A stretch of 43,070 nt of DNA. It comes from a virus. The notes under the pieces are model-generated. The model had not been told where the DNA came from. It searched no databases and saw only the letters and a list, made by a program, of their open reading frames with translations. This document shows, piece after piece, positions 3,507 through 43,070 of the stretch (positions are counted from its first letter, which is position 1; each line of letters opens with the position of its first letter). Both the position numbers and the translations under genes were made by a program. The stretch covers positions 1 through 43,070 of the IMG/VR virus record IMGVR_UViG_3300045988_050530; one strand, written 5' to 3'.

Positions 3507-4273
3507 TGACGAGATACGCCTGCCGGTTGAACGGCATTGATCTGTCGAGCATCGACCCGGCAATCTATGTGCTTGACGTGAGCACCGTTTCGCCCGTGCG
3601 CGATCTTGTGACGACACCACTTGCAGGGAGAAACGGACAGCGAATCACGAAGCGCACGACGAACAGCCTGAGCGTCGAGGTAAAATTTGAAATCCACGAG
3701 CAGAACACCGTTCGCCGCGCCCTCATCGCGGAGAAAGTGACGGAGTGGGCGATCCTCGGCGGCGTTCTGACGACGAATGACCGACCCGAAAGGCGGCTGC
3801 ACGTCATCTGCGAGACGTTGCCGAACTTCTCCGCTCTGCGCTGGACAAACAGCCTGACGGCGACGTTCACGGCTTTTGAAATCCCATTCTGGGAGAGCGA
3901 ATACCCGCGAAACGCGACGGTTGACGGGAACGGCGAAGCTCAAATGATTGCGCCGGGCTTTGCGGACGATTCCCGCGTGTGGGCAAGCGTGACCAATGCC
4001 GGAACGGACGCGATCACGACCGTAGACCTGACAGCCGGACAAACCGCGCTGCACTTCTCCGGGCTTGCGCTCCCTTCCGGATCGGCGCTGGAAGTCGGAA
4101 CGGACGAGCACGGCGTTTTTTACGCGCGAATCGGAAACGAAAGTGTACTGAGCAAGCGGACGGCAGAATCAAGCGACGAGCTACGGCTTGAAGCCGGGAA
4201 GTTTGGCAAGCTGTCTGTCTCCACAGATGGAAAAGCGAAGACGAGATTCGGCGTGAGGGGGTATTACACATGA
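3503..4273 (+). CDS. Distal tail protein (Dit-like)
   Basis: ATGA overlap with the tape measure stop. 256 aa, in the canonical position after the TMP. Confidence 0.7.
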   Translation: MMTRYACRLNGIDLSSIDPAIYVLDVSTVSPVRDLVTTPLAGRNGQRITKRTTNSLSVEVKFEIHEQNTVRRALIAEKVTEWAILGGVLTTNDRPERRLHVICETLPNFSALRWTNSLTATFTAFEIPFWESEYPRNATVDGNGEAQMIAPGFADDSRVWASVTNAGTDAITTVDLTAGQTALHFSGLALPSGSALEVGTDEHGVFYARIGNESVLSKRTAESSDELRLEAGKFGKLSVSTDGKAKTRFGVRGYYT

Positions 4274-6051
4274 GCGTAAGGCTTCCGCGTCTGCTTGACG
4301 CGCAGCTCCGCGAGGTGTGCCGCCTCCATCCCGTTACGCTGTCCATCAACGAGCGGCTTGTACCGCCGCATGATGCTTCCATGACGCTTCCTCCGGGCGA
4401 GGGAGCGCCTTTCCACGCATTGGTAGAGCTTTATACCATCGACGGCAGTGCGGGCTTCTACCGAGTTTCTGGCGCGTCTGAGTGCTATGTCATCACAGGA
4501 GACGTTGACCTAGAGCACAGCGCGGCGATTCTCGGCGATGCGATCATTCCCGGCGAGGGGAAGTACAGCGGAACATGCGCCGAAGTGCTGACGGCGATGC
4601 TGGCAAACCAGACGACGCTTATAAACGGTCAAAAGCCTTGGGTTCTAGGCACTTGTGCGAAAAGTGCAAGCATCGAATATGAGTATGACTGCAACAACAT
4701 CCTGTCTGCTATGACGGAAGTGGTCGGCGACGAGAAAGACGGCTACGCGCTCGAATTTGACGATACGCACGGTTTCCCGTGGCGGGTGAACGTTGTACCG
4801 GTCGAAACGACCGCGAGTTGCGAGGGGCGACTAAGCCGAAACCTCGAAAGCGTCAGCATCTCGATATCCGATGACGAGTTCTGCACGCGGATTTACTGCA
4901 AAAATCTCCCAGAACCGCACTACATTGACAGCTCGACCGTCAGCGTGTGGGGCATCATTACGAAGACGATCACCGCCGGAGAGGGCGTGACCGCTGAGAG
5001 CTTGAAAAGCTACATCACGCGATACCTCGAAGACCACAAAAACCCGCGAATCAGCATTGAGATCAACGGCGTTGATTTGGCGACCGCGACCGGGGAAAGC
5101 CTCGATTCCTTCCGAACCGGGCGACTTTTCCGGCTTGCGCTCCCTGATTACGACGTGAAGATGGAAGAGCGAATCCTTGTGCGCAGCATCACCGACGTTT
5201 ACGGTGACCCGCGCGGCGTAAGGCTGACGCTTGCAAGCAACATCCGCGACACGGCGGAAGACCTCGTGCGGCTGGACAACACCGTTACAGGCGGATCGTC
5301 GCAGAACAGCACCAAAAAGTATATCGGCGGCGGAACATCCAAAGGAACGGGGCTTTCGCAAACATCCGTGCTCGATATGCTTAAAAAGACAGATTCTTTC
5401 ACCAGCGCAACGGAGGCGTGGGTTAAAGAAGCGGGCGTGAAGATTGAGGCGAATCACGCCGATCTATACGCGACGAAGCAAGCGATCACGGGAAATTGGG
5501 CGGGAGACGTTGAGACGATTAACGCCTTGATTACCGCATCGAGTGACAACGGCGGTCTTGTATCAATGCTTGTCGGTCGGCACAACAAGATTGAGGACGT
5601 GAACGCCGCCATCTCTGCGACTGCCGCTGGTGGTGGTCTGGTTACGATAAAGGCAGACAACAAAACCGTTACCGATCTAGGCGAGCGCGTCTCAAGTGCG
5701 GAAATCAACATTAGCGCGGCAGAAAGCAAAATCGAGCTGAAGGCGGACAAGATCGCGCTGGATGGATATGTTACGATGTCCAAATTTAATGCGGAGATTG
5801 CAGAAATCAAAATCACCGACAGCTCATACGTGACAACAGCGGCACTGAATACTAAATCCTTGAGCGCTAACTATGCGGAGATTAGCAGCATCAATATTGG
5901 AGGAAAACAGGCGCGCTGGGAAAGCGTGACCGTTGTAACCGGCGTGACAAGAAAAAAACGGTATGCAATGGCTCCGTCAGGCACAACAAACATGGAGTTT
6001 TACGAGTGCGCCAGCGTAAGCACTGACACATTCACACTTTTGATGGCATAG
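4270..6051 (+). CDS. Tail-associated protein (Tal / prophage-tail endopeptidase-type baseplate hub) with C-terminal coiled-coil extension
   Basis: ATGA overlap with Dit. 593 aa, in the canonical third position after the TMP. Confidence 0.7.
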   Translation: MSVRLPRLLDAQLREVCRLHPVTLSINERLVPPHDASMTLPPGEGAPFHALVELYTIDGSAGFYRVSGASECYVITGDVDLEHSAAILGDAIIPGEGKYSGTCAEVLTAMLANQTTLINGQKPWVLGTCAKSASIEYEYDCNNILSAMTEVVGDEKDGYALEFDDTHGFPWRVNVVPVETTASCEGRLSRNLESVSISISDDEFCTRIYCKNLPEPHYIDSSTVSVWGIITKTITAGEGVTAESLKSYITRYLEDHKNPRISIEINGVDLATATGESLDSFRTGRLFRLALPDYDVKMEERILVRSITDVYGDPRGVRLTLASNIRDTAEDLVRLDNTVTGGSSQNSTKKYIGGGTSKGTGLSQTSVLDMLKKTDSFTSATEAWVKEAGVKIEANHADLYATKQAITGNWAGDVETINALITASSDNGGLVSMLVGRHNKIEDVNAAISATAAGGGLVTIKADNKTVTDLGERVSSAEINISAAESKIELKADKIALDGYVTMSKFNAEIAEIKITDSSYVTTAALNTKSLSANYAEISSINIGGKQARWESVTVVTGVTRKKRYAMAPSGTTNMEFYECASVSTDTFTLLMA

Positions 6052-6477: not shown

Positions 6478-7857
6478 TTGAATCTCGGCGTATTCAAGCG
6501 CAGAATTGACGTTGACGCTGAAATCCAGATGACCCCGCTAAAGTCGCTGTATGCGTCAGGCGACAAGAACGCGCATATCTTCGAGCTTTCTCTCTATCGA
6601 GGCGCTGAAGAAATGGACTTGAGCGGTGCAAGCGCTCAGGGCTATTTTATCCGCGCAGACGGGTGTACCGTTCCCATTGCGGGAACGATCAGCGGCAATA
6701 TTGTGACCCTCACGATTACGGAGGGCTGCTATTACGTCGTCGGCAACTTCAACCTTATCATTAAGGTTTCCATCGGCGAAAGCCGAAAGTCTGTATTTTG
6801 GGGAAACGGCTACGTCGTGCGCAGCATGACGGACGCGATTGTCGATGAGGAAAACGTTATTCCGTCGCTTGATGAGCTTCTGGCGCAGATTTCCGCCGCA
6901 GAATCGGCGGCGAAGGCCGCGAATCAAGCTGCATCGGCAGCAAACTCCGCAGCAACCAGCGCAAGGCAAGCGGCAAGCGCGGCTAACACGAACGCATCAG
7001 CGGCAAATAGCGCGGCAAATGCGGCCACATCCGCAGCTTCCGCAGCATCAGCAGCCGCAACGAAGATCGACGACATGACCATCACGGCGACCGGCCTTGC
7101 GGCGGGCGCTGCACCGACGGCAGAGCTGACCGAGGTGGGCGGGCACTACAATATCGCGCTCGGCCTGTCGAAAGGCGATAAAGGCGATCCGGGCGCAACC
7201 CCTCAGATCACGGTGCAAGTCAAGACCGGCGAACCGGGCACGGCGGCGAGCGTCAAACAGACCGGCACGGCGGAAGCGCCGGTGATCGAGCTGACGATCC
7301 CGCGCGGCGACACGGGGAACATCGGGAGCCTGACGATCAACGGAAAGGCACCGGACGAGGCGGGGAAAGTGACGTTGACCGCAGCGGACGTTGGGGCGCG
7401 TGCTGACGACTGGATGCCGACGGCGGCGGATGTGGGGGCGCTCTCCGGCACGGACGCGACGCTGACGCAGGCGGGAAAGGCTGCGGACGCAAAGGCGACG
7501 GGGGATGAGCTTAGTCAGCTAAAGACCGATGTTGACGCTAAAATCAATCAATCTGACGCGCTGACATTAGAAGAGATTATGGCGAGCACGGACTTGTCTA
7601 AAAAAGTAGCTAGTGCGGAAGCTGTCAAAACCATTAAGAACGACATTACATCATTGAAACAAGGAGGTTTTTACACCGAAAAAAATAAGGGGAATACAAT
7701 GCCTGCTGACTATGGTGGGTTTATCCGTATTACCGGAAGCAGTTGGCCGGGAAGTTTTGTCAGCGATACTTACTATTTGGGCGTTGCTTCTGATGGAACA
7801 GCATACTCGGGAGCGCAGATAAATGGCAATAAACAAGTCACTTGGAAAACGCTGTAA
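6478..7857 (+). CDS. Baseplate upper protein / tail fibre (BppU-like N-domain, Ala-rich coiled coil, distal domain)
   Basis: TTG start 9 nt after AAGGAG. The N-terminal beta-domain pattern resembles BppU_N. A long A/S/N-rich helical stretch (AAESAAKAANQAASAANSAATSARQAASAAN...) follows. The last ~350 nt are AT-richer. Confidence 0.7.
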   Translation: MNLGVFKRRIDVDAEIQMTPLKSLYASGDKNAHIFELSLYRGAEEMDLSGASAQGYFIRADGCTVPIAGTISGNIVTLTITEGCYYVVGNFNLIIKVSIGESRKSVFWGNGYVVRSMTDAIVDEENVIPSLDELLAQISAAESAAKAANQAASAANSAATSARQAASAANTNASAANSAANAATSAASAASAAATKIDDMTITATGLAAGAAPTAELTEVGGHYNIALGLSKGDKGDPGATPQITVQVKTGEPGTAASVKQTGTAEAPVIELTIPRGDTGNIGSLTINGKAPDEAGKVTLTAADVGARADDWMPTAADVGALSGTDATLTQAGKAADAKATGDELSQLKTDVDAKINQSDALTLEEIMASTDLSKKVASAEAVKTIKNDITSLKQGGFYTEKNKGNTMPADYGGFIRITGSSWPGSFVSDTYYLGVASDGTAYSGAQINGNKQVTWKTL

Positions 7858-7866
7858 GTGGGGATA

Positions 7867-8223
7867 ATGATGATTAAAATCAAGATAAACACCTCGGATG
7901 AAATCCGGGAAGTAACGTTTTCGCGACACAGTGAGCATGTTATTGAGCTTGGTGGTATCGCCGACGCTCCAACAACAGGCTTTACGACGTGGCGCATGGA
8001 CGGCGTGACCCAGCTCGGCGATTTCAGCGGCTACACGACCGTTTACCGCACCCTTGACAACGCGGTGCAGCTCTCCGACGACGGCAGCGTGTACGTCGAG
8101 CCGGAAGTGCCGGAACCGGGAGAACCGAAGCCGACGCAGGAAGAACGCATCAAGACGCTTGAAAACCAGAACGAAACCCTGCTGCAATGCATCCTCGAGA
8201 TGAGCGAGATTGTGTATGCTTAA
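7867..8223 (+). CDS. Hypothetical fibre-associated protein
   Basis: ORF immediately after the fibre gene. ATG 7867 was chosen over GTG 7858. The C-terminal helix (EERIKTLENQNETLLQCILEMSEIVYA) is typical of small post-fibre proteins. Confidence 0.55.
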   Translation: MMIKIKINTSDEIREVTFSRHSEHVIELGGIADAPTTGFTTWRMDGVTQLGDFSGYTTVYRTLDNAVQLSDDGSVYVEPEVPEPGEPKPTQEERIKTLENQNETLLQCILEMSEIVYA

Positions 8224-8266
8224 CATTTTTGGACGGCTCATTATAATGAGCAGAAAGGAAGAAGAT

Positions 8267-8398
8267 ATGATGGCTATGTTATGGGCACAGCAGATTATGC
8301 TTGGCAAGAAGACCTACGCGCAGGTTCCGCGCCTGCTCAAGGAGAAGGTCAGGGAAGTCCTGATTGACAGCGGTTGCGAAGACCTCGTGACGGAGTGA
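8267..8398 (+). CDS. Small XkdX-like post-fibre protein
   Basis: 43 aa (MMAMLWAQQIMLGKKTYAQVPRLLKEKVREVLIDSGCEDLVTE). This pattern is seen downstream of fibre genes in Firmicutes phages. The function call is weak. Confidence 0.45.
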   Translation: MMAMLWAQQIMLGKKTYAQVPRLLKEKVREVLIDSGCEDLVTE

Positions 8399-8447
8399 CA
8401 CAAGAGCGCTACATTGAACTTGAGTTAAACGAAGGGGAGAGAGCGTG

Positions 8448-9989
8448 ATGCGTGATATCATTCTGTCGCTTGACCGTTTTGGCGATCAAGCGCTTCTGCT
8501 TGGGCGCGTCGGCGAAAATCGCGCGACGCGGGTACTGATCGACATAAAAAGCATATTGAGCCAGTATCCGGATGCTATTGCGTCGATCACGGTCAAGCCG
8601 CCTGGCCGGGCGGAGTATCCGGCGGCGGTGAAGCAAGAGGACGGTATCCTGACGTGAGAGATCACGAGAGCGGACATCGGCAATAAAACCGGAAGCGGGC
8701 AAGCCCAAATCACAATCCAAGACGCGGATGGCACGATCATCAAGACCGCGATTGCCTGTACGCGCATCGGCGAGTCTCTTGGCAACGCAACTGCCCCAGC
8801 GCCTGATCCTGTTGAAACATGGATCGACAAAGCGACTGGCACACTGGCCGACGTTGAACGAGCGGGAAACGCCGCGCAAGCGGTCGCGGACGAAGTACAG
8901 CGGCGGTTGGACAACGGCGACTTTGTGGGGCCGCAAGGCCCGCAGGGCGAAAAGGGCGACCCCGGCGCGAAAGGCGAGAAGGGCGACCCGGGCGCACCGG
9001 GCGCGCAGGGCGAGAAGGGCGACCCGGGAAAAGACGCGCCGCAGGAAGTTGTGCTGTATACGGCGCAGACGCTTGATGATGCGCAAAAGGCGCAGGTAAG
9101 GGAGAACATCGGGGCGGCGGATGCAGCCCGGCAGAACATCCTTGTGGGCAGCGAGACGGGCAACCCGATTGCCGTTGATGATGCCTTTGCCGCTCCGCTG
9201 CGCGGTTTGACCGTGTACGGCAAGAGCACGCAGGACGGCACGCCCACACCGGATGCACCTGTTCCTATCGTGAGCGCTGGTGACGGCGGGAGCGTGGTGG
9301 TGACCTTGAGCGATGGGAACGGCAAAACGCAAACTCTCACCCTGCCCACCTCTAACGGCTTACCCGGTATTCCTGTCACCTCTGGCGGCAACTACACTGA
9401 CCCGCAGGGACAGCAGTGGGTGTGCGATGAGATTGACTTAGAGAGAGGAGTGAAGGTGCAGAGAATCGCAAGTTTCGTGATTAATGCTAAAAATGCAAAT
9501 GGTATTTCTGTGACGAACGTGTATACAAACGTTACTGCAGCCACAAGTGCGCGTTTAGCAACTCCACAAAAAACGAGCAAAGGTATGCGACTCGAAAAAT
9601 GCGTATTTTGCGAAGCGCTGCCATGGGCGCGTGATGTATGGGGTAGAATCATAAACTCGATAAATTATGTCGAAGATAATTCTGTCGATTTCATAATCGA
9701 AAACTCCTACTTAGGACTAAGCGAAGCAAGCACCGTGGATGAACGAAAAACTGCACTGGTTAAATACTTTACAGATAAACCTTGTCGAGTTGTATACAGG
9801 ATCGCCACCCCCATCGAAACCCCGCTCACCCCCGCCGAACTCGCCGCCTACAAAGCGCTGACTACCTACGCGCCCGACACCGTGGTGCAAGCGAGCGACG
9901 GCGCGGGGCTGAAACTGGACTATCAACGAGACGTCAACATTGTGATCAAAAATCTTGAGGACGCGATTGCGTCTATGACTGCGACCTAA
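8448..9989 (+). CDS. Collagen-like tail fibre / receptor-binding protein, single reading frame interrupted by one in-frame TGA at 8655-8657
   Basis: 8448-8654 and 8658-9989 are in the same frame. There is no ATG/GTG/TTG in the 249 nt after the TGA, yet the sequence looks coding. A GXY collagen run and a distal domain follow. Confidence 0.6.
8928..9029 (+). repeat. Collagen-like Gly-X-Y coding repeat (GPQGPQGEKGDPGAKGEKGDPGAPGAQGEKGDPG)
   Basis: Eleven consecutive GXY triplets with internal DNA repeats of GGCGAGAAGGGCGACCCGGG. Confidence 0.9.
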
Positions 9990-10003
9990 AGGAGGGAAAG
10001 CAT

Positions 10004-10234
10004 ATGGCTATCAAAAGCAAAGCCCGGCACGACCTGACCCTGCGCTCTATTAAGCGCGAGATCGCCGCCAGACGCGACGTGGCGTACTGGCTGGACAAGG
10101 CATACACCCATCTGGACAGCGGCCTGCTGACAGAGGACGACATCACGGAAATTGAAGCCCTTGCGCAGGCATATTATGATGCGCTGGACGCGGCAGAAAG
10201 GGAAGAAGCTGACGACGGCCTTTCAATCGTCTAA
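10004..10234 (+). CDS. Hypothetical acidic protein
   Basis: ATG preceded by AAAGGAGGG. 76 aa. Confidence 0.55.
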   Translation: MAIKSKARHDLTLRSIKREIAARRDVAYWLDKAYTHLDSGLLTEDDITEIEALAQAYYDALDAAEREEADDGLSIV

Positions 10235-10249
10235 GGGAGGTGGGTGTCA

Positions 10250-11032
10250 ATGATTCGGGCGAACGCGCTTATCGCGCTATTTAGGCGCATGCTGGACGAG
10301 CACTGGGCGTATGAGTGGGGCGCAGCGCGTGAGGGTTGCGTGGACTGCTCAGGGGCTTTTGTGTGGGCGTACAGACAGCTCGGCGCGAGCATCGAGCACG
10401 GCAGCAACTCCATTGCACATTTGCGCGTCGGTGAGTATGTGCCTGTGGCGAAGGCAAAACCGGGTTATGCGGTCTTTAAGTTGCGGGCGTGGCGAGACGA
10501 TAGCGACAACGGCGGCAACCGCTGGTTTGGCCAGCAGCCCGGCGATGTCTATCATATCGGTCTGATGGGCGACGACGGAAAAGTGCTCAACGCGCAGAGC
10601 ACAAAGACGGGCTTTGTCGCGTCGCCCGTGTCGCAAAATTGGTCGTTCGCCGCCCCGCTAAAGGCGGTCAGTTATTCAGATAACGATGAGGGAGGTGATA
10701 CTATGTTTGGCAACGCAACGGTCAAGACGCAAAGGGCGGGCAGTTACGTCAATCTGCGTGAGGGCGCTTCCACGCGAGCGGCTGTGATCGGCAAGGTCTA
10801 CGACGGCGAGCGTGTCAACGTGCTGCGCGAGGCAGGGACAGGCTGGATTTACGGCAAGACGCAGGCTGGCGCGGAAGGCTACATGTCGGCGGATTACATC
10901 GTCGAGGACGCGCCAGGCGCAGATGACGCGGAGGATGACGGCGGCGAAGAGACTGCCAGCACAACCACGCTGACCGACGGCAACGGCACATATGTGACGC
11001 TGGTCGGGCGGTGGAGGATTACAAAAGACTGA
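10250..11032 (+). CDS. Endolysin: NlpC/P60-type cysteine peptidase + SH3b cell-wall-binding domain
   Basis: Catalytic-type Cys in GCVDCSGAFVWAY and His in VYHIGLMGDDGKVLNA. SH3_3-like segment ATVKTQRAGSYVNLREGASTRAAVIGKVYDGERVNVL...GYMSADYI. ATG 10250 lies 9 nt after AGGGAGG. Confidence 0.85.
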   Translation: MIRANALIALFRRMLDEHWAYEWGAAREGCVDCSGAFVWAYRQLGASIEHGSNSIAHLRVGEYVPVAKAKPGYAVFKLRAWRDDSDNGGNRWFGQQPGDVYHIGLMGDDGKVLNAQSTKTGFVASPVSQNWSFAAPLKAVSYSDNDEGGDTMFGNATVKTQRAGSYVNLREGASTRAAVIGKVYDGERVNVLREAGTGWIYGKTQAGAEGYMSADYIVEDAPGADDAEDDGGEETASTTTLTDGNGTYVTLVGRWRITKD

Positions 11033-11056
11033 TGAGGTGACGGATAGGTGGACTTG

Positions 11057-11263
11057 ATGACATGGCTTCCGGCGGTTGCAAGCGCGGTCGGCAGCCTTGC
11101 AGGCGTGCTTGCATCCAATAAGCTGATGCAATATCGCATTCAACAGCTTGAGACTAAGGTCAACAAGCACAACAGTATCGTCGAGAGGACGTACAAGCTT
11201 GAGGGCGAGGTCAAAGAGCTTCAGCATGACATACGAGACTTAAAAGGAGATATCAAGGTATGA
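11057..11263 (+). CDS. Membrane-anchored coiled-coil protein of the lysis cassette (holin partner / XhlA-like, uncertain)
   Basis: N-terminal hydrophobic segment WLPAVASAVGSLAGVLA followed by a heptad-like helix. ATGA overlap with the holin gene. Confidence 0.5.
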   Translation: MTWLPAVASAVGSLAGVLASNKLMQYRIQQLETKVNKHNSIVERTYKLEGEVKELQHDIRDLKGDIKV

Positions 11264-11514
11264 GGATTAACTGGTTGGTACGCTTTCACAACAAGACGTT
11301 TCTGGCGTCGTTTCTGGCGCTGGTGATCGCGTTTGTTTATAATCTGCTGGCGCTGTTTGGCGTAACGCCGACGGTGCAGCAGGACGCGCTTTTGACTGCC
11401 GTCAACGCGATCCTGACGGTGCTGGGCATGATCGGCGTGATCGCCGACCCGACGACCAAGGGCATCAGCGACAGCGCGCAGGCGATGACCTACGACAAGC
11501 CCAAGGAGGGATAA
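11260..11514 (+). CDS. Holin (phi LC3-type)
   Basis: 84 aa. Hydrophobic segments FLASFLALVIAFVYNLLALF and AVNAILTVLGMIGVI. The N-terminal MRINWLVRFHNKTFL and the DPTTKGISDS motif resemble phi-LC3 family holins. It is adjacent to the lysin. Confidence 0.75.
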   Translation: MRINWLVRFHNKTFLASFLALVIAFVYNLLALFGVTPTVQQDALLTAVNAILTVLGMIGVIADPTTKGISDSAQAMTYDKPKEG

Positions 11515-11529
11515 GGGAGGCGGTTTCCC

Positions 11530-11757
11530 GTGCGCCTTGATTTTGACAGGCGCACGAAAGAAGAAATCGCCCGCCGCTGCGGCTTTGACGAGCACGTCCG
11601 GCTGGGTCAGGTCTTTGATTTGCTCTGGCGTGGTTACAGCATCGTGCAGATCAGCATGACGCTGGGCATGTCTCCGGCGACCGTCAGCCGTAGCATTCGC
11701 GAAATTAAAAGACGAATGTCTGCATCTATATATACGGATGATAATACCCCGGCCTGA
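11530..11757 (+). CDS. Small HTH protein (sigma-70 region-4 / LuxR-like helix-turn-helix)
   Basis: GTG start after AGGGAGG. HTH-like YSIVQISMTLGMSPATVSRSIREIKRRM. The stop codon sits in the loop of the terminator hairpin. Confidence 0.6.
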   Translation: MRLDFDRRTKEEIARRCGFDEHVRLGQVFDLLWRGYSIVQISMTLGMSPATVSRSIREIKRRMSASIYTDDNTPA

Positions 11758-11774
11758 TGGCTGGGGCTTTTTTT
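11747..11774 (+). terminator. Rho-independent terminator (copy 1 of duplicated cassette)
   Basis: CCCCGGCC-TGAT-GGCTGGGG hairpin followed by CTTTTTTT. Confidence 0.8.
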
Positions 11775-11810
11775 AATGCAAAAAATAAATAAAAATAATT
11801 TGAAAAACAC

Positions 11811-11839
11811 TTTACAAGTAAATTAAAATAATGTACAAT
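11811..11839 (+). promoter_or_regulatory. Sigma-70-type promoter (copy 1): -35 TTTACA, 17-nt spacer, extended -10 TGTACAAT
   Basis: Read directly. Preceded by an A/T-rich UP-like tract. Homologous to the 14299-14327 promoter. Confidence 0.65.
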
Positions 11840-11885
11840 ACAGACATAAAGAACAAGGAAAACAACCAGATCGGAGAAAACAAAA

Positions 11886-12101
11886 TTGAAGTACATCATT
11901 AGCTATGAGCGAAACGACGTCTACCAGTGCATTGGAATAAACGCCCAGACCACAGAGCAAGCCGCCGCTTACTTTTCCCAGTACAAGCCTAGCGCCCAGA
12001 TCCTTGGTATCAGTGAGCGCATGGAGGACAAGCCCGGACGCCCTGTTATCACGGTACCCGATGATTTTGGGGTAAGCCTGGAACCGCAAGCGCGATCTTG
12101 A
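11886..12101 (+). CDS. Hypothetical protein (moron cargo 1)
   Basis: The TTG start occupies exactly the position of the ATG in the duplicated leader (AAACAAAATTG vs AAACAAAATG). 71 aa. Confidence 0.5.
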   Translation: MKYIISYERNDVYQCIGINAQTTEQAAAYFSQYKPSAQILGISERMEDKPGRPVITVPDDFGVSLEPQARS

Positions 12102-12168
12102 GATCGGCTACATCGACAACATGACCGGCGCGCTCGTCGCTGCGTAAAAGCAGAAAGGAAGGAACAAC

Positions 12169-12618
12169 ATGACTATTATCGAAGCAAAGAAGCGCATTGA
12201 TGACGCCCTGATCCCTCTCAAGTATTCCCGCACCGTTTGCTGGGATTCCGACCTCGAGGATCGGCTTGTCAACCGTTACGCAGAAGAATACGCGGGCGGA
12301 ATGGATTTCGCATTAACGCCCGCCGCTCGAATGATGGGCGGATGGGGCAACCGTCCCGATGACGCAGATGATGATGAGCAATTCGCTATCATCGCGCGCA
12401 GAATCTTTGACACGCTAAACGAATCCGCCGTCAAGCACTGGCTGACGGCCATGCCACGCGATCACGCCGCCGCGATCTACGAAGAACTTGGATATTACGA
12501 GGGCACAATCACGTATTCTCATGTCGAGATGTGTGGCAGTTTGTTTCGCCACAGGTGGAACGGCTGCCACCCCGACGACGAAATCCCGGTCAATCCTGAT
12601 TTTTTGCCGAGTGTTTAA
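12169..12618 (+). CDS. Hypothetical protein
   Basis: ATG preceded by AAAGGAAGG. 149 aa, no recognisable motif. Confidence 0.6.
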   Translation: MTIIEAKKRIDDALIPLKYSRTVCWDSDLEDRLVNRYAEEYAGGMDFALTPAARMMGGWGNRPDDADDDEQFAIIARRIFDTLNESAVKHWLTAMPRDHAAAIYEELGYYEGTITYSHVEMCGSLFRHRWNGCHPDDEIPVNPDFLPSV

Positions 12619-12633
12619 GATGTAAGGAGGTAC

Positions 12634-13272
12634 ATGATGAGCAAATTTGTAGTCGAGATTAAGGATGATCAGGCATACTTGACAACGCCGTATAATCCGG
12701 TATATGTCCAGCGCATTAAGCAAATTGGTGCCAGATGGGATGCCTCTAGCAAACGCTGGCGCATCAATGCCCAGAGCGTCGATGTGGCACGCAAAATCAT
12801 GCGAGAGATTTACGGCGAGGACGATCAAGAGCAGAACGAGAAAGTTACGGTCATCGCCACTTTTGCTGCGGAACGGTCGGCCTTGTGTAGTGCTTACTGT
12901 CTACTTGGCAAGGTCATCGCTCGAGCATACGGCAGAGATTCAGGCGCTCAGGTTGGCCCTGACGCAGCTTTCGCCGCAGGAGCGCCTCAGAGCGGCGGAA
13001 GTGTTAAAAACTGGCGAACGGTCATTCCCGCTGGTAGCGTTGTCGAGATTTATAACGTCCCCTTACAATTCGCAGAACAGGAAATCAAGCGCAACAAATC
13101 GCAAGACGATAAAATCGAATTTGAGATTAAAAAAGGATCGTGCAAAATTGACCGCGAGGCGTTGGCGGCAGAACGAGAACGGCTTTTGCTTCGCATCTCT
13201 GAGATTGACCAAATATTGAAAAGCCAAAAAGAAAAATCGGGAGATTGCTCCCCCGATTTTCCTCTTGCCTAG
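12634..13272 (+). CDS. Hypothetical protein with small N-terminal ARWD..K.W domain (DUF5710-like) and C-terminal coiled coil
   Basis: TAAGGAGG RBS. N-terminus YLTTPYNPVYVQRIKQIGARWDASSKRWRI resembles the small domain found fused to plasmid primases/topoisomerases. Recognition from memory only. Confidence 0.6.
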   Translation: MMSKFVVEIKDDQAYLTTPYNPVYVQRIKQIGARWDASSKRWRINAQSVDVARKIMREIYGEDDQEQNEKVTVIATFAAERSALCSAYCLLGKVIARAYGRDSGAQVGPDAAFAAGAPQSGGSVKNWRTVIPAGSVVEIYNVPLQFAEQEIKRNKSQDDKIEFEIKKGSCKIDREALAAERERLLLRISEIDQILKSQKEKSGDCSPDFPLA

Positions 13273-13411
13273 TTGATTTTGCACTAGATAAGTCAACGTT
13301 TCAATCCACACGAGGCGTTGCCTCGTGGCCGTCTTCGGGGCGTCGCCTCCGAGACACCATTATTATAAGACGACTAATTACATTTGTCAAGAAACGGAAA
13401 GGGGAAAAAAC

Positions 13412-13906
13412 ATGAACATTAAACAGCTGCGCGTCTTGCGCGGATTGAAACAGAAGGAGCTGGCGGATAAGATGGGTATATCCGCCCAGCAGCTCAATAA
13501 TTACGAGGGTGGGCAGAGCAACCCCGGAAACAAGATTCTGCCTGCGCTGGCGGACGCGCTGGGCGTTTCGACCGCCTACCTTCGGGGCGACGCGCAGAGG
13601 CTGGCCGTCTATGATTGGGAGACTGGATGCACGCTGGCACTCCCAATCGTGTCCGAGACGGTGATCGACGATTACGGCATTTTCTACCTCGTCGAGCACC
13701 CGGAAATCGGAGTGATGGCGGTGATCCAGTCCGAGGGCGTGCAGTTTACCCTCGCGAGATGGCAGGATGATCCGCCGATGACTGTTGACAAGATCGCTAG
13801 TGCGCGCTGGGTAGATTCGCGTGGCGAAGACGCGATAATGTATAGGGGCTTGCCGCGCGTCCTCGTTGGCGGTGAGTTTGGCAGCAAGAGGGATCGGCTC
13901 GGTTAA
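13412..13906 (+). CDS. XRE-family HTH regulator with ~100-aa C-terminal domain of unknown function
   Basis: MNIKQLRVLRGLKQKELADKMGISAQQLNNYEGGQSNPGNKILPALADALGVSTAYLRG is a canonical Cro/C1-type HTH. I trimmed the track ORF to ATG 13412. Confidence 0.8.
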   Translation: MNIKQLRVLRGLKQKELADKMGISAQQLNNYEGGQSNPGNKILPALADALGVSTAYLRGDAQRLAVYDWETGCTLALPIVSETVIDDYGIFYLVEHPEIGVMAVIQSEGVQFTLARWQDDPPMTVDKIASARWVDSRGEDAIMYRGLPRVLVGGEFGSKRDRLG

Positions 13907-13951
13907 AATCAACAAAATATTAACCGACAAAAAAGGAAAGGAAGAAAAAAC

Positions 13952-14233
13952 ATGAAAATCCCAATTTACAAATCTTATGGTGTTCTGGCGCACGAATATC
14001 AGCCGGTTTATACGTGGGCATGCCCGCAGAGCGAAATCTATGATGAGATCATCGTGGAGGTACCGAACGTTGACGGCGAGAATTGCTACGGTCAGCCGCT
14101 CGTTAATTTTGGCGACGGGGTTGTTTATCCGCTCCCGATGGTGCTTGACAACTGGGGCGACGAGCCAGCGCTTATCTGGTATGATGGCGCGGTGCGACAC
14201 CACAAAATCTTGAAAGCGTATACAAAACTATAA
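13952..14233 (+). CDS. Hypothetical protein
   Basis: ATG preceded by AAAGGAAAGGAAG. 93 aa. Followed by a terminator. Confidence 0.6.
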   Translation: MKIPIYKSYGVLAHEYQPVYTWACPQSEIYDEIIVEVPNVDGENCYGQPLVNFGDGVVYPLPMVLDNWGDEPALIWYDGAVRHHKILKAYTKL

Positions 14234-14238
14234 GATAT

Positions 14239-14269
14239 CCCCGGCCTGATGGCCGGGGCTTCTTTTTTT
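14239..14269 (+). terminator. Rho-independent terminator (copy 2 of duplicated cassette)
   Basis: CCCCGGCC-TGAT-GGCCGGGG perfect hairpin followed by CTTCTTTTTTT. Confidence 0.85.
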
Positions 14270-14298
14270 GTAAAATAAAAAAATTATTTATAAATCGC

Positions 14299-14327
14299 TT
14301 GACAAGTAAATTAAAACAGTTTATAAT
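14299..14327 (+). promoter_or_regulatory. Sigma-70-type promoter (copy 2): -35 TTGACA, 17-nt spacer, -10 TATAAT
   Basis: Consensus hexamers read directly, with an A/T-rich tract upstream. Confidence 0.75.
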
Positions 14328-14370
14328 ATAGCCATAAGAACAAGGAAACAACGTGATCGGAGGAAACAAA

Positions 14371-14745
14371 ATGAAAAAGAGCGAAGAGTACAAAATTGCC
14401 GAACGCCGCCACAAGTTCCGCGACGCGATCCCGGGTCTCAAGGAGCTCGAGGCGGCGAGAGAAGAGTGGGCGGCCTACCGCGAAGCGTTTTCACGGGCTG
14501 TGCACAGCGGCGACGGCATCTATCCCGCAAAGCCCAAGAGCGATCCGGCGGAGCTGAGCGCACAATACCCGATGGCGGCCGCGATGCTCCGAGCAGAAAG
14601 CTACTCTCGAGCCGCCAACTACCGCAAGGCCAGCGCAGGCAGAAAAGCCGTCGAGCGCATCCTTGACGGCGAGGAATGGGAAAAGGCCGTCAGCGACATG
14701 GAGACTGAGTGGCACGAGGCGGCGCTCGAACACATGTGGGACTGA
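14371..14745 (+). CDS. Hypothetical protein (moron cargo 2)
   Basis: ATG 14371 lies 7 nt after GGAGGA. I trimmed the track ORF (GTG 14353). Bounded by its own promoter and terminator. Confidence 0.65.
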   Translation: MKKSEEYKIAERRHKFRDAIPGLKELEAAREEWAAYREAFSRAVHSGDGIYPAKPKSDPAELSAQYPMAAAMLRAESYSRAANYRKASAGRKAVERILDGEEWEKAVSDMETEWHEAALEHMWD

Positions 14746-14765
14746 CAAAAACCCGATATAAATCT

Positions 14766-14798
14766 GACGTGCATCTGATAGGTGCACGTCCTTTTTTT
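14766..14798 (+). terminator. Rho-independent terminator
   Basis: GACGTGCA-TCTGATAGG-TGCACGTC hairpin followed by CTTTTTTT. Confidence 0.8.
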
Positions 14799-14806
14799 AT
14801 GCCAAA

Positions 14807-15202
14807 ATGAAGGCAGAAGCAGGTGAGAGCGTGTTTGTTCCGTTTAATCCAAACCCTTTTCGATCTCGCGTCGGCGACTGTGCAATTAGAGCTGTAAGCA
14901 AGGCCACAGGCCAAACATGGGAAAGCGTCTTCATTGCGCTTTGCCTTGACGGCTTTTGCGCTGGGGATATGCCGAACGCAAATCACGTCTGGGGCGCGTA
15001 TCTTAGGCGCAAAGGCTTCAAGCGTCACAGCATCCCGGAGACGTGCCCGGACTGCTACACGGTTTCGGATTTCTGCCGAGACTTTCCGCGCGGCGTTTAT
15101 GTTTTGGCGACAAATGGACACGTTCTCGCGGTCGTGGACGGTGATTGGTATGACACATGGGACAGCGGCGGCGAAACGCCCCTTTACTACTGGGAGGGAT
15201 GA
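14807..15202 (+). CDS. Putative papain-fold cysteine peptidase-like protein
   Basis: N-terminal GDCAIRAVSKATG (candidate nucleophile Cys) and C-terminal TNGHVLAVVDGDWYDTWDSG (candidate His/Asp). Start uncertain: ATG 14807 or GTG 14831. Confidence 0.55.
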   Translation: MKAEAGESVFVPFNPNPFRSRVGDCAIRAVSKATGQTWESVFIALCLDGFCAGDMPNANHVWGAYLRRKGFKRHSIPETCPDCYTVSDFCRDFPRGVYVLATNGHVLAVVDGDWYDTWDSGGETPLYYWEG

Positions 15203-15205
15203 TTT

Positions 15206-15652
15206 ATGGCCTATCCGATTCAAGGTTGGCAGCAGCCATACGGCGGTTATTACCCACCTATGCAAGACCAACTCGCGCAGCTCAGATCACAACCATACAT
15301 GCCGCAGCAGCCAGCGCAGCAAGCGCCAGCTCAAAATAGCGGCGGAATCATCTGGGTGCAAGGCGAAGCGGCGGCGAAAAGCTACCCGGTCAGCCCCGGA
15401 AGCGGCGTTCTGCTGATGGACAGCGAATCTTTGACGTTTTATCTCAAATCTGCGGACGCAAGCGGTATGCCGTCTATGCGAATCTTTGACTACACCGAGA
15501 GGACAGCGTCGAGGCAAGCCGAGCCTTCCGTGCAATCAGCCGAGTATGTAACCCGCGACGACTTCAACGCGCTCGTGGCGCGTGTCGATGCGCTGACAAA
15601 AAAGCCGAACAGAAAAAAGGAGGATGCAACCGATGAGCAACCCGCTGTTTAA
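15206..15652 (+). CDS. Hypothetical protein with Gln/Pro/Tyr-rich N-terminus and conserved-looking core IIWVQGEAAAKSYPVSPGSGVLLMDSESLTFYLKSADASGMPSMRIFDY
   Basis: Starts 4 nt after the preceding stop. Low-complexity N-terminus followed by a compact domain. Confidence 0.65.
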   Translation: MAYPIQGWQQPYGGYYPPMQDQLAQLRSQPYMPQQPAQQAPAQNSGGIIWVQGEAAAKSYPVSPGSGVLLMDSESLTFYLKSADASGMPSMRIFDYTERTASRQAEPSVQSAEYVTRDDFNALVARVDALTKKPNRKKEDATDEQPAV

Positions 15653-15863
15653 TGCGATGCAGGGCATGTCTCGGAATCTTCCCGGACAGATGGGACAGTT
15701 TCAGCAGATGGCGCAGGAGTTCAAGCGGTTCAAATCTGAGTTTAGAGGCGATCCGCAGCAAGAGGTTCAGCGCCTACTCAACAGCGGCAAGATGACGCAG
15801 CAGCAGTTTAACCAGCTCTACGGCATCGCCCACCAGTTCCAAAGCCTTTTTGAAGGTCTCTAG
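15633..15863 (+). CDS. Hypothetical Gln/Met-rich small protein
   Basis: ATG 15633 lies 9 nt after AAAAGGAGG and overlaps the upstream gene end. 76 aa (MSNPLFNAMQGMSRNLPGQMGQFQQMAQEFKRF...). Confidence 0.6.
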   Translation: MSNPLFNAMQGMSRNLPGQMGQFQQMAQEFKRFKSEFRGDPQQEVQRLLNSGKMTQQQFNQLYGIAHQFQSLFEGL

Positions 15864-15915
15864 CGGCTAAATCCGTGCGCACGGTTAGCGATAAAAAACG
15901 AAAGGACGTGTGGAA

Positions 15916-16716
15916 ATGTCTTTGACTACTTCAGAAATGACCCCCGCCGATATCGCGGCGTTAACGGGCGGAAATCGCAATAACGGCGGCATGTTTGGAG
16001 ACGGGAATGGTGCATGGTGGATCATCGTTCTGTTCCTCTTCATGTTCTGCGGCTGGGGCGGCGGCTTCGGCAATAACGGCGCAAATTCTCCGGGCTTCCA
16101 AGGCTACGCGACCCGCGCAGACATCAATGAAGGCTTTGCCATCAACGGTATTGACAACGGCATCCGTGCCATCCAGAACGGGCTTTGTGACACCACCTAC
16201 GCCATCACCAACGCCGTCAATAGCGGTTTCAGCGCGGCGGAGCTTTCTCGCGCCAACCAGCAGGCGGCGCTCATGCAGCAGCTCTTTGCGATGCAGATGC
16301 AGCAGGCGAACTGCTGCTGCGAGACGCGCGAAGCGATTCAGGGTGTGAATTACAACCTCGCTACTCAGGCTTGCGACACGCGCAACCAGATGCAGCAGGG
16401 TTTCTGTGCCATCCAGAACACGCTTAACAATAACACCCGCGACGTGATCGACAATCAAAACGCCAACAGCCGCGCGATTCTCGACTTCCTGACGCAGGAC
16501 AAGATCGCCACGTTGCAGGCAGAAAACACCGATCTTCGCCGCGCCGCGTCGCAGGAGCGTCAGTCGGCGCTTCTGACCACGGAGATGGGGGCGCAGACTG
16601 CGCAGATCATCAACGCGCTGCGTCAGCCTGTCGCCATCCCTGCGTATCAGGTGCCGAACCCCTACACGGGCGGTTACGGTTATGGCTGTGCTGCTAACGC
16701 CGGTTGTGGCTGCTAA
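15916..16716 (+). CDS. Hypothetical membrane protein: Gly-rich N-terminus, one TM segment, Gln/Asn-rich helical body with Cys clusters
   Basis: WWIIVLFLFMFCGWGGGFG hydrophobic segment. A CCC triplet (QQANCCCETREA) and the C-terminal GYGYGCAANAGCGC. Confidence 0.65.
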   Translation: MSLTTSEMTPADIAALTGGNRNNGGMFGDGNGAWWIIVLFLFMFCGWGGGFGNNGANSPGFQGYATRADINEGFAINGIDNGIRAIQNGLCDTTYAITNAVNSGFSAAELSRANQQAALMQQLFAMQMQQANCCCETREAIQGVNYNLATQACDTRNQMQQGFCAIQNTLNNNTRDVIDNQNANSRAILDFLTQDKIATLQAENTDLRRAASQERQSALLTTEMGAQTAQIINALRQPVAIPAYQVPNPYTGGYGYGCAANAGCGC

Positions 16717-16830
16717 AATCGCATAAGAGATGCAACTGTTCGGCGTGACCGAGCTGTTCAGCCCTGAGCTGATTCTGCAACGACGGCGGGGCGAATGTGT
16801 CCCGCCGTTTCTTATGAAAGGAGATAATCT

Positions 16831-17253
16831 ATGGCTGAGTATACCAACGCCAGCACGGCGCTTGTCGCGGCTGGCCAAAATCTGGCATTGACCGAAACGC
16901 CGATTGGCGGCTCTCCGTGCATCGTCCATCGAGAGGGCGCGGGAATCGTAACGCTTCGCGGCCTGACGAACCAGTGCCGAGCGCGGTACTTTGTGGACTT
17001 CGTCGGGAACATTGCCATTCCGACGGGCGGAACGGTTGAAGCGATCTCCGTTGCGCTGACGATAAACGGCGAGACGCTGAATAGCGCCGTCGCTATCGTC
17101 ACCCCTGCGGCGGTCGAGAACTATTTTAATGTTTCCGTCTCTGCGTTTGTCGATGTGCCGCGTGGATGCTGCGTAACCGTCGCGCTGAAAAACACCAGTG
17201 CGCAAGCGATTGACGTTGCCAACGCAAACCTGATCGTCACGCGGCAGGCGTGA
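16831..17253 (+). CDS. Small all-beta protein with C1q/TNF-like (BclA C-terminal-domain-like) sequence pattern
   Basis: GAAAGGAG RBS. Alternating beta pattern ...GIVTLRGLTNQCRARYFVDFVGNIAIP...ISVALTINGETLNSA...VTVALKNTSAQAIDVANANLIVTRQA, as in exosporium BclA-type jelly-roll domains. Recognition by eye only. Confidence 0.6.
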   Translation: MAEYTNASTALVAAGQNLALTETPIGGSPCIVHREGAGIVTLRGLTNQCRARYFVDFVGNIAIPTGGTVEAISVALTINGETLNSAVAIVTPAAVENYFNVSVSAFVDVPRGCCVTVALKNTSAQAIDVANANLIVTRQA

Positions 17254-17267
17254 GAAAGGAGAAAAGT

Positions 17268-17636
17268 ATGAGCATGAAAGCAATGCGCGACTTGCGCGAT
17301 ATGCTTTGCGATGAGCTGGACAAAATCGCCGCCAAGCGTGACATGAACCCAGGCGACCTCGAAACTGTCCACAAACTGACCGACACCATCAAAAATATTG
17401 ATAAAATCGAAATCCTTGAGGACGAAGGGTACAGCAACAGCGCGGAGTGGCGCGCTGACGTGCGCGGAAGCTATGGACGCAACGACCGGCGCGGCGAGCA
17501 TTACGTGCGCGGGCATTACAGCAGCGACGACGGGCGAGAAAGCATGATGCGCAAGATGGAAGAGATCATGCGCGACGCGACCGGCGAACAGCGCGAAATC
17601 ATCCGCCGCGCGATGGACGAGCTGCGCAACGCCTGA
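17268..17636 (+). CDS. Hypothetical charged protein
   Basis: ATG 17268 lies 7 nt after GAAAGGAG. 122 aa, Arg/Asp/Glu-rich. Confidence 0.65.
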   Translation: MSMKAMRDLRDMLCDELDKIAAKRDMNPGDLETVHKLTDTIKNIDKIEILEDEGYSNSAEWRADVRGSYGRNDRRGEHYVRGHYSSDDGRESMMRKMEEIMRDATGEQREIIRRAMDELRNA

Positions 17637-17652
17637 CGGGCGGTGAGCGGCA

Positions 17653-17973
17653 TTGATCGACCTGAAAGAGATCGACGAAACCATCACCAAGATCAAGCGC
17701 GAAGGGACGAGCGTGAAAGACGCTGAACGCCTGGCGGTGCTATACGGTCTTCGGGCGCACATGGCAAGCGAATCCGTGCAGGATGTGAGGGAAGCGCCCG
17801 TTTCGGCGTACTTGATGGCAGCAGAGCCGGAAAGCGAGTTCCGCGCTGCGTGTGCAGGCTTGTCATCTGCTGAGCTTGTCGATGCGTTGGAAGACACGAT
17901 TCAGGGATTGCAGATCGTTGCGCCGAAGGCATACGCGGCAGCAATCCGGAAACTGAAAGCATCTCGAAACTAG
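17653..17973 (+). CDS. Hypothetical protein (last gene before attP)
   Basis: TTG start. 106 aa, and the only long ORF here. Confidence 0.5.
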   Translation: MIDLKEIDETITKIKREGTSVKDAERLAVLYGLRAHMASESVQDVREAPVSAYLMAAEPESEFRAACAGLSSAELVDALEDTIQGLQIVAPKAYAAAIRKLKASRN

Positions 17974-17980
17974 CTGTTTT

Positions 17981-18010
17981 TGACACGATTTCACACGAAA
18001 TTTCACACGA
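17981..18010 (+). repeat. Candidate integrase arm-type sites, left arm: TGACACGA / ATTTCACACGA / ATTTCACACGA at 12-bp spacing
   Basis: Direct reading. The same 11-mer pair recurs at 18197-18219, on the other side of the tRNA-derived core. Confidence 0.6.
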
Positions 18011-18044
18011 AGAACAAAAAAGCTAGTAAATACAACAGGAATAA

Positions 18045-18072
18045 ATGGGTTCAAGTCCCATCTACCGCACCA
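18045..18072 (+). other. attP core: 3' fragment of a tRNA gene (T-arm ATGGG-TTCAAGT-CCCAT, acceptor 3' strand CTACCGC, discriminator A, CCA)
   Basis: Canonical T-arm/acceptor/CCA read directly. No complementary 5' acceptor strand (GCGGTAG), D-arm or anticodon arm upstream. Integrase gene 140 nt away. Confidence 0.75.
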
Positions 18073-18077
18073 AACAG

Positions 18078-18117
18078 GAAATCCAGAGGCCACAAAGGTT
18101 TCTGGATTTTTTCTTTT
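18078..18117 (+). terminator. Rho-independent terminator directly after the tRNA fragment
   Basis: GAAATCCAGA ... TCTGGATTT stem followed by a T-run (TTTTTTCTTTT). Confidence 0.75.
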
Positions 18118-18196
18118 GCCTTCTATTTTATTCAGTGTAAATTATTACTCATTTCGTGTATCGTCATTCCTTTCCTGTGTGAACTTTTGCAAAATC

Positions 18197-18219
18197 ATTT
18201 CACACGGAATTTCACACGG
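18197..18219 (+). repeat. Candidate integrase arm-type sites, right arm: ATTTCACACGG A ATTTCACACGG
   Basis: Direct reading. Overlaps the 3' end of int. An inverted partial copy (CTGTGTGAAC) lies at about 18172-18181. Confidence 0.6.
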
Positions 18220-19327
18220 GCTTTTTGATGGATTCGTAGAGCGCCGCCGTTCCTGCGGCCAGCTCGGCGTTTACGGATTCCTGCCGTTCGTGGAAAAGCT
18301 CGACGTACACCTGATGGGAGAAAGCGGACGTTGAATGACCCATGACGCGGGCAAGCTCTTCTTCGGACGCGCCGGAGTAGGCGACGGACGTTGCAAAAAA
18401 ATGACGCAGATCGTAAAAGCGCATCTTTCCGGGAAGCCCAAGCGCCGCCCTGCATTTTTTCCAGCGGTAGTCAACGAGGTTAGGCTTTAGCGTCAGTATT
18501 TGGGCGTGGTCAGCGCCTCGTGGCTTGCAGTCGTACAAGTTTTGGAAAAAAGACCAGTCGAGACGAAGCGCGCGTTCTCCTGCATCTGTCTTTGTGACGT
18601 TTTTTCTGACGTATGAGCGGGATTCATCGCGCACTGTGGCCTTGTCGATGCTTAAAAGCCCCATTTTGTACGCTTTCCCGTCTCTGCTGATTGCGGAAAC
18701 AGGTTCAGCGGACAGATCGCCCCACGTCAAAGCATACGCCTCAGAAGGGCGCAAGCCCGCGCTCACAATGAAGCAACAATAAAGATAGAAATCCGTTTCC
18801 CAATGCTCTTTGGCGTAGGTCAGCACGTCTCGCGCCCAGCCTTCGGAGAAAAGCTGCTTCTTCGACTTCTTCCTTTTGGCTATGACAATCCCGGACAAAT
18901 TCAAATCAGGCGCATATTTGCCCAAAACAGAGCGCAGAAAGTAAAACTCATTCCGAACCGTTTTCACAGCATGATCTTTAGCCCTTGCGTCAATTGCTTT
19001 TTGGATATCCCGCTCTGTGATTTGATCCAGGCGTAAAGAGACAAGCATCGGAAAGCTGTTTTCCCGTATCGAGACATACGCCGGAATCGTGGACGGCGAA
19101 TAGCCCTGTACACGGCAAGTATCTATAAACTCGTCCATTGCCTGACCGAGCGTCAGCGTTTGCTTCTTCTTCCGCTTGCGATCGGCAGCAGCGACGGCGG
19201 CAAGGCGCTCAGATTCACGGGCGGTCGATGCGGTAAAGGATTCAACGATTGGCTTTCCCGTTGCATCCTTACCGAGGTAAACCTGTGTTCGCCAGTTGCC
19301 GGACGGCAGCTTTTTTGCTTTTGCCAT
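18212..19327 (-). CDS. int: Tyrosine integrase
   Basis: Tyrosine-recombinase motifs: GLRPSEAYAL (Arg), YDLRHFFAT (box II), MGHSTSAFSHQVYVELF (His ... catalytic Tyr). Adjacent to attP. Confidence 0.95.
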   Translation of the reverse strand: MAKAKKLPSGNWRTQVYLGKDATGKPIVESFTASTARESERLAAVAAADRKRKKKQTLTLGQAMDEFIDTCRVQGYSPSTIPAYVSIRENSFPMLVSLRLDQITERDIQKAIDARAKDHAVKTVRNEFYFLRSVLGKYAPDLNLSGIVIAKRKKSKKQLFSEGWARDVLTYAKEHWETDFYLYCCFIVSAGLRPSEAYALTWGDLSAEPVSAISRDGKAYKMGLLSIDKATVRDESRSYVRKNVTKTDAGERALRLDWSFFQNLYDCKPRGADHAQILTLKPNLVDYRWKKCRAALGLPGKMRFYDLRHFFATSVAYSGASEEELARVMGHSTSAFSHQVYVELFHERQESVNAELAAGTAALYESIKKPV

Positions 19328-42995: not shown

Positions 42996-43070
42996 CCGAG
43001 ACGGCAAAGGCGCTAATGACCGAGACGGCAAAGGCGCTAATGACCGAGACGGCAAAGGCGCTAATGACCG
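42992..43070 (+). CDS. 5' part of the tail completion-like gene (continues at nt 1-397 across the junction); N-terminal (MTETAKAL)n
   Basis: ATGA overlap with the upstream stop. 24-bp units at 42992, 43016 and 43040, with a partial unit at 43064. In frame with 8..397. Confidence 0.6.
   Translation, partial: MTETAKALMTETAKALMTETAKALMT

Follow-up and report, generated by a model that had tools for sequence, protein, structure and literature searches.

A probable tolerated nonsense allele in the collagen-like tail-fibre gene of a temperate gut phage

The stretch of DNA analysed here, referred to as the window, is the whole 43,070 nt of IMG/VR virus record IMGVR_UViG_3300045988_050530. On its plus strand, between a Tal-like gene (Prophage_tail, 4270-6051) and a gene for a 459-aa fibre-like protein on one side and the endolysin (NlpC/P60 and SH3) and holin genes on the other, lies a tail-fibre gene (8448-9989) with one TGA inside it. 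Read from the ATG at 8448 (alternatively from GTG 8445), the frame consists of 69 codons (8448-8654), the in-frame TGA at 8655-8657 in the context ...GGT ATC CTG ACG TGA GAG ATC..., and another 443 codons up to the TAA at 9987-9989, with a conceptual full-length product of 513 aa. A Shine-Dalgarno-like sequence, GAAGGGGAGAGAG, precedes the ATG at 8431-8443 and is also kept in the relatives L001 and L002. By rough estimate, 443 codons would escape a stop by chance with a probability of ~1e-9, and the stretch downstream of the TGA is therefore taken to be coding. The 249 nt that follow the stop (8658-8906) contain no in-frame ATG, GTG or TTG, the first being the TTG at 8907, from which gene callers annotate a 360-aa ORF (8907-9989); the sequence upstream of this TTG, GTACAGCGGCGG, holds no convincing ribosome-binding site, and the product would be without the N-terminal docking domain. 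An earlier note, made from the sequence alone, had described the frame as open save for this TGA and the start-less stretch as reaching to TTG 8907, and reading of the sequence and the ORF listing confirmed the former, the ORF listing the latter. Paralogy between the fibre and its 459-aa fibre-like neighbour was considered and rejected (hhalign probability 0.5%).

The conceptual protein starts with an N-terminal all-beta domain (approximately residues 1-107), continues through a helical or coiled-coil stalk and a segment of collagen triple helix, and closes with a C-terminal domain whose last residues are ...NLEDAIASMTAT. The G-X-Y repeats at 8931-9035 (residues 162-196) match Pfam Collagen with E=3e-6 and 27.3 bits against a cut-off of 27.2, the corresponding regions of relatives reach E=1.1e-14, and the number of repeats differs between relatives through in-frame length differences. 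Judged by these profile matches, the collagen-like region in a tail-module gene is real and the assignment as a collagen-like tail fibre holds, as the earlier note had proposed for a gene of ~510 codons, a size that needs only the small correction to 513 aa. Like the collagen-like tail fibres of Firmicutes phages, the protein has G-X-Y repeats and modular swapping of its C-terminal part; unlike in those fibres, the PHROG matches (10972, 5073, 366, 1806 and others) are limited to the collagen/stalk segment and reach neither the N- nor the C-terminal domain.

For the fold of the N-terminus we relied on the AlphaFold model of a homolog that is 93% identical, with a mean pLDDT of 48.7 and values of 50-78 in the N-terminal domain. 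The model has an all-beta domain at residues 1-107 with predicted strands at 67-72, 82-91 and 97-107, and the position of the stop, W70, sits within the strand 67-72, at this low to moderate confidence (pLDDT 50-78). The 249 nt behind the stop, which are conserved in homologs, would encode the remaining strands of the domain, and in the model the TGA breaks a domain rather than ending one. The top Foldseek matches include chains of 4v96 (the TP901-1 baseplate) and 9m8o (the NF5 baseplate), at E ~5e-4 and with TM-scores <0.3 on a model of mean pLDDT 48.7. Like BppU of the lactococcal phage TP901-1 (PDB 4V96), the fibre is encoded downstream of Dit and Tal, and its predicted small beta domain at the N-terminus would likewise lead into a helical stalk for trimerisation; it differs in that no Pfam match to the N-terminal domain, BppU_N included, and no PDB sequence match by profile search was found, in its TM-scores below 0.3 on a low-confidence model, and in that it adds a collagen segment and its own receptor-binding-like C-terminal domain. 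A BppU-like docking domain at the fibre N-terminus is thus a lead only.

Forty-two homologs were retrieved with the N-terminal 160 aa as query, and every homologous protein that spans the stop column has a Trp there (...GILTWEIT...). At the level of DNA the site reads TGG (ACG TGG GAG) in 31 of the 31 related loci, comprising L001-L004 and 27 IMG/VR contigs. Since the relatives all have TGG, the window differs from them by a single G-to-A change at 8657, and the alignments show the ancestral state to have been Trp (TGG), as judged by comparison of the sequences. At least nine relatives (L010, L011, L012, L014, L015, L019, L024, L029 and L030) have a single uninterrupted ORF of 497-573 aa, which starts MRDIIL... 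and ends ...NLEDAIASMT(T/A)T as does the frame in the window, and BLASTP aligns these proteins with that frame collinearly from residue 1 to the final residue. The homolog alignment that the earlier note had called for therefore gave a clear answer: the locus is one gene and not two, as had been supposed, the residue in the stop column is the Trp that had been guessed, and the TGA is absent from relatives outside one near-clonal cluster. Megablast of the gene against the INPHARED phages returned only two unannotated fragments, which match its 3' end.

Beyond the N-terminus, the central and C-terminal parts of the fibre are mosaic among relatives, and in other relatives the conserved N-terminus of ~160 aa is joined to different, shorter C-termini (231-276 aa). 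In P0016-P0036, L006, L016, L021 and L022, the N-terminus (window 8448-8930) either continues into a short, collagen-free C-terminus (231-234 aa) that ends ...YFYVEGR..LYLITSDAAPPDF...VYG, or belongs to products of 258-261 aa with a separate gene downstream. The mosaic indicates that the distal part of the fibre is probably exchanged between phages in the manner of a cassette, and the combination of a conserved N-terminus with a mosaic C-terminus is a pattern typical of receptor-binding proteins.

The TGA allele is real. Among public contigs, 16 have an ORF call identical to the 69-aa truncated product and seven have one identical to the 360-aa product, and the TGA was present in all 13 distinct contigs that were fetched (L036-L048), from at least 10 sample accessions (ERZ918256/ERR912041, ERZ28576044, ERZ28618959, ERZ21883318, ERZ27244832, ERZ28640567, JGI 3300029698, ERR11570385, ERR14035473 and ERR11569640). 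All are short-read assemblies, made with MEGAHIT (k127 and k141), SPAdes or Logan. Except for L039/L051, the TGA contigs are 100% identical to the window across the 1542-nt gene or the portion of it that they hold. With flanks of 10 kb included, all fall into a single cluster of at least 99.6% identity, in which SNPs and patches of recombination distinguish no fewer than five genotypes: the window type (L049, L053 and L056); L055, which has 14 SNPs, a patch at 7953-8160 holding 12; L054, which has a different backbone before 7511 and after 17958; a prophage remnant (L050 and L052); and L051. The SNPs are dense in small patches of otherwise near-identical genomes, i.e. the 12 in L055 and about 20 in L051 (6330-6461), and the patches, in genes immediately preceding the fibre, have the appearance of short tracts of recombination. 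A revertant of this clone to TGG was not seen. A scan of JGI metagenomes with a TGA-containing 22-mer returned no matches even though the JGI contig 3300029698 Ga0245184_100748 (L043/L053) contains it, so the scan either was not exhaustive or had its source contig masked, and its negative result is no proof of absence. Four matches of a pattern scan in genome contigs were rejected as chance, coming from unrelated organisms with flanks that share nothing with the phage, and with these taken as chance no reference genome carries the phage at that site.

The ends of the window consist of a 24-nt tandem repeat, ATGACCGAGACGGCAAAGGCGCTA (1-55 and 42999-43070), with a terminal overlap of 38 nt, and other assemblies are circular permutations of it; from the overlap and the permutations together it can be concluded that the window is a complete circular phage genome of ~43 kb. 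The 24-nt repeat encodes MTETAKAL, the first eight codons of the ORF at 8-397, and is present in two copies in L055, four in L049 and five in L053, a variation from which the repeat appears to be a VNTR that lengthens the N-terminus of a protein of the head-tail region. Identity to the integrated copies ends at 17958, just short of the minus-strand integrase gene at 18212-19327, and at that point the integrated copies have a tRNA-Leu(CAA) gene (19707-19793 in L050 and 19545-19631 in L001), followed in L001 by a host histidine-kinase gene. Taken together, the break in identity and the tRNA suggest that attP lies at approximately 17958-18212 and that the phage integrates at tRNA-Leu(CAA). In L050 (at 8309) and L052 (at 221), which come from two samples, an identical junction is found where host DNA abuts the phage at window position 6756, inside the gene at 6478-7857. 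This leaves a prophage remnant of 11.2 kb (6756-17958) with a fibre gene that is 100% identical and has the same TGA, and such a remnant might exchange alleles with the complete phage. The host genes at the junction include those for an ABC transporter, MatE, an RsmB-like protein, LysR, chromate transporters and AsnC; among named sequences, those closest to the RsmB-like protein come from 'Clostridia bacterium' MAGs (62-66% identity), and on this basis the host is taken to be an uncultured Clostridia bacterium. The TGA allele is also present on complete, circularly permuted assemblies of 43 kb, which implies that the phage still excises or replicates, and if the fibre were essential it would then need rescue.

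Further lesions of the fibre gene are present in the TGA lineage itself. L051 has, together with the TGA, a missense change of ATT to ACT at 8752 that replaces a conserved Ile by Thr, an in-frame loss of 63 nt of collagen repeats, and a deletion of 1066 nt (9097-10162) by which both the C-terminal domain and the gene after it are gone. In L057 and L058, which come from two samples and match the window at 99.95-100% identity, the segment 8644-10131 is missing; copies of the 8-nt microhomology AGAGGACG at 8636-8643 and 10124-10131 bound the loss. This 1488-nt deletion fuses the first 65 fibre codons in frame to the last 31 codons of the gene at 10004-10234, which encodes a 76-aa protein (P0040). 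Substitutions downstream of the stop number zero in most TGA genomes, and L051 alone has a few (the clear missense at 8752 and three differences inside the collagen repeats), which is too little variation for dN/dS.

The fibre homologs of phages outside the TGA lineage are damaged in other ways: by a 5-nt GGACG duplication in L003 (about 950), by an A6 to A7 change in L018 at the window equivalent of 9568, by two extra nucleotides in an A4G3 run in L001 (about 10500), and in L059-L061 by an internal deletion that joins ...ADIG to KTQTLTLP... and a frameshift. Some of these lesions in relatives may be assembly errors, and the two extra nucleotides of L001 are possibly a long-read error, the contig name suggesting a long-read assembly. 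The lesions of L003, L018, L001 and L059-L061 are taken to be independent. With these deletions and frameshifts, the gene can be described as whole in many lineages and repeatedly lost in others.

Considering these findings, the most economical interpretation, to which we give a probability of roughly 80%, is that W70* is a tolerated nonsense allele by which an accessory fibre is knocked out, i.e. an ordinary loss of function rather than programmed recoding. A single G-to-A transition at 8657 would have turned TGG into TGA within the N-terminal docking domain of a baseplate-attached fibre, in a near-clonal temperate siphophage whose host is an uncultured Clostridia bacterium of the gut. Release factor 2 would terminate at W70* as it would at the other TGA stops of the phage, and the main product, the sole one under normal termination, would be the 69-aa fragment, an incomplete beta-sandwich, leaving the fibre effectively knocked out. 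The lineage could tolerate the loss if the fibre were accessory or dispensable, or if the element persisted mainly as a prophage, and the fibre gene would be at an early stage of decay. A near-cognate tRNA-Trp may occasionally read the UGA and give the exact wild-type protein, with no sign of selection for such a leak. Three marks of a nonsense allele are found here: the orthologs have a sense codon in a continuous ORF, the allele is reproduced in independent data, and the lineage has more lesions. We infer both the loss of fibre function and the dispensability of the fibre. The earlier note had listed a recent nonsense mutation inactivating the fibre among three options, and it is this option that has the best support, in the modified form of a population-level allele that extends beyond one assembly to several slightly diverged genotypes. 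Because a chromosomal remnant and several genotypes, distinguished by scattered SNPs and patches of recombination, have it in common, the allele appears not to be brand new, yet it would be young enough for an unchanged downstream ORF. The counterpoint to a knock-out is that most TGA genotypes keep all 443 codons downstream of the stop open and without change, which fits a young pseudogene or continued use.

Continued use could be envisioned through leakiness of the stop. UGA is the leakiest of the stop codons. If the host tRNA-Trp(CCA) read it at a few percent, a sub-stoichiometric amount of wild-type fibre, carrying the peptide ...QEDGILTWEITR... across residue 70, might suffice, and the TGA would act as a neutral or favoured 'dimmer'. 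The missing residue is exactly Trp, so that a ribosome passing the stop would make the native protein; most TGA genotypes have an undamaged ORF downstream; and the allele is carried by excision-competent circular genomes of 43 kb in several samples. In E. coli reporters, the residue inserted at UGA was nearly always Trp, and read-through rose when +4 was a G, as it is here (PMC11126739), while for B. subtilis a read-through of about 6% at catA86-TGA is cited at second hand (PMC7918605). Against a functional leak stand the lack of conservation of the stop outside one near-clonal lineage and the lack of any stimulatory RNA structure or known element among those searched for (see below). Moreover, TGAG is an ordinary terminator context in this system, used by four other phage genes and three host-flank genes, and derivatives of the same clone delete the gene outright, arguing that the fibre is unneeded. 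The fibre is also presumably a trimer, as suggested by the collagen segment, and monomer at a few percent would give few complete trimers per virion. Together, the unconserved stop, the missing signal, the normal use of TGAG and the deletion of the gene in sister genomes argue that read-through is not a selected mechanism, and we consider a functional leak unlikely. An unprogrammed, low-level UGA-to-Trp leak that yields some full-length wild-type fibre is plausible. The stronger proposal, that the TGA is maintained by an adaptive small dose of wild-type fibre made through UGA-to-Trp misreading in the Clostridia host, seems to us quite improbable; if true, it would be a natural 'leaky switch' that tunes the copy number of a receptor-binding protein in a dsDNA phage and is reversible by one transition.

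Neither does the locus look like a site of programmed read-through, one of the two forms in which the earlier note had raised the first of its options. In such a system the stop would be conserved at the same position, and here the TGA is confined to one cluster at least 99.6% identical; the stop would close a complete domain, and here conserved domain sequence runs across it; of the expected features, an open downstream frame without its own start is found. The predicted fold of the 100 nt beginning at the stop is no better than that of shuffled sequences (z=+0.63), and a search of 8300-9100 for Rfam recoding elements or a SECIS returned nothing near thresholds. With the stop unconserved in relatives, without a recoding signal and inside a domain, programmed read-through is not supported.

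A change in the meaning of TGA, whether in a code-4-like phage or by way of a suppressor tRNA or selenocysteine, would be in keeping with the existence of stop-codon-recoded phages in the human gut (PMC9523058), and we regard it as very improbable in this genome. TGA is the commonest stop of the phage, terminating 15 of its 32 other called genes, and it ends six of the eight genes of the host flanks, which are intact under code 11. The ORF ends at 397, 3506, 4273 and 28417, which the earlier note had given as real TGA stops, were confirmed as ORF ends, those at 3506 and 4273 also as TGA. The genome has no in-frame TGA besides that of the fibre: this gene alone is interrupted by a stop that no start follows, and the other neighbouring ORFs that share a frame have starts beside the stop. 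With TGA ending 15 of 32 other genes and no second split gene, the earlier exclusion of genome-wide TGA-to-Trp recoding stands. ARAGORN found no tRNA gene in the window, the sole tRNA near the prophage being the host tRNA-Leu(CAA), and the homologous residue is Trp, neither Cys nor Sec. The recoding machinery is absent.

Just as improbable is that the locus holds two genuine genes, one for a 69-aa protein and another for a separate 360-aa fibre starting at TTG 8907. Gene callers do call both ORFs on all TGA contigs; against this, relatives have one continuous ORF, the intervening 249 nt encode conserved domain sequence, no Shine-Dalgarno precedes TTG 8907, and the split would fall inside a beta-strand. 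Reinitiation after the stop was considered separately and rejected, as on direct reading the overlapping GTG at 8654-8656 opens just a 10-codon, out-of-frame ORF. Finally, a sequencing or assembly error in the window, the third option of the earlier note, is refuted to the point that we give it a negligible chance: the TGA is a single-base difference against all relatives and has a GATC site 3 nt downstream, but it recurs identically in the 13 other distinct contigs from at least 10 independent samples and different assemblers, and a nanopore error near the GATC site is rejected because the TGA contigs are short-read assemblies.

Among known systems, the Q-beta A1 protein offers one comparison. 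There the UGA of the coat gene is decoded by tRNA-Trp, extending the coat protein; that stop is conserved and closes a complete, functional coat protein, to which the extension is an essential addition. In both cases a gene for a structural protein of the virion contains a UGA, the residue inserted is Trp, and what lies downstream is without its own start; they differ in that the stop here is unique to one clone and lies inside a domain, where the upstream fragment, on the predicted strands, cannot be a complete fold. With the recoded crAss-like and Lak phages (code 15 or 4; PMC9523058), this phage shares the human gut as its habitat and a late structural gene that contains an in-frame stop. 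In the recoded phages such stops are numerous, the codon is avoided for termination and suppressor tRNAs are often encoded (PMC9523058); this phage shows none of these three traits. A closer likeness is to the nonsense and frameshift pseudogenes of prophages: bacterial genes commonly contain in-frame stops, most of which do not last long and which are enriched in the mobilome (Belinky et al. 2021, PMC7918605). As in those pseudogenes, a single derived stop occupies a conserved sense codon in a lineage-specific, SNP-like allele, sister genomes have further deletions, and the setting is that of a prophage or temperate phage. The difference here is that the allele is also found on complete, apparently excision-competent circular genomes in several people and that the rest of the gene is intact. 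With this difference in mind, the fibre allele fits the published picture of short-lived in-frame stops of the mobilome (PMC7918605).

The phenomenon is thus an ordinary one in an uncharacterised fibre family and will be unsurprising to specialists. For annotation, the pair of 'hypothetical proteins' of 69 and 360 aa, into which the gene is split on every contig that carries it, is better described as one disrupted fibre gene. With its deletion descendants and intact cousins, the locus offers a clean natural case of a nonsense allele carried to many people by the spread of a temperate gut phage. Since read-through restores the native Trp, it could also serve as a natural reporter for UGA leakiness in an uncultured Clostridia host, and the fibre itself is a good candidate for an accessory, frequently lost receptor-binding protein.
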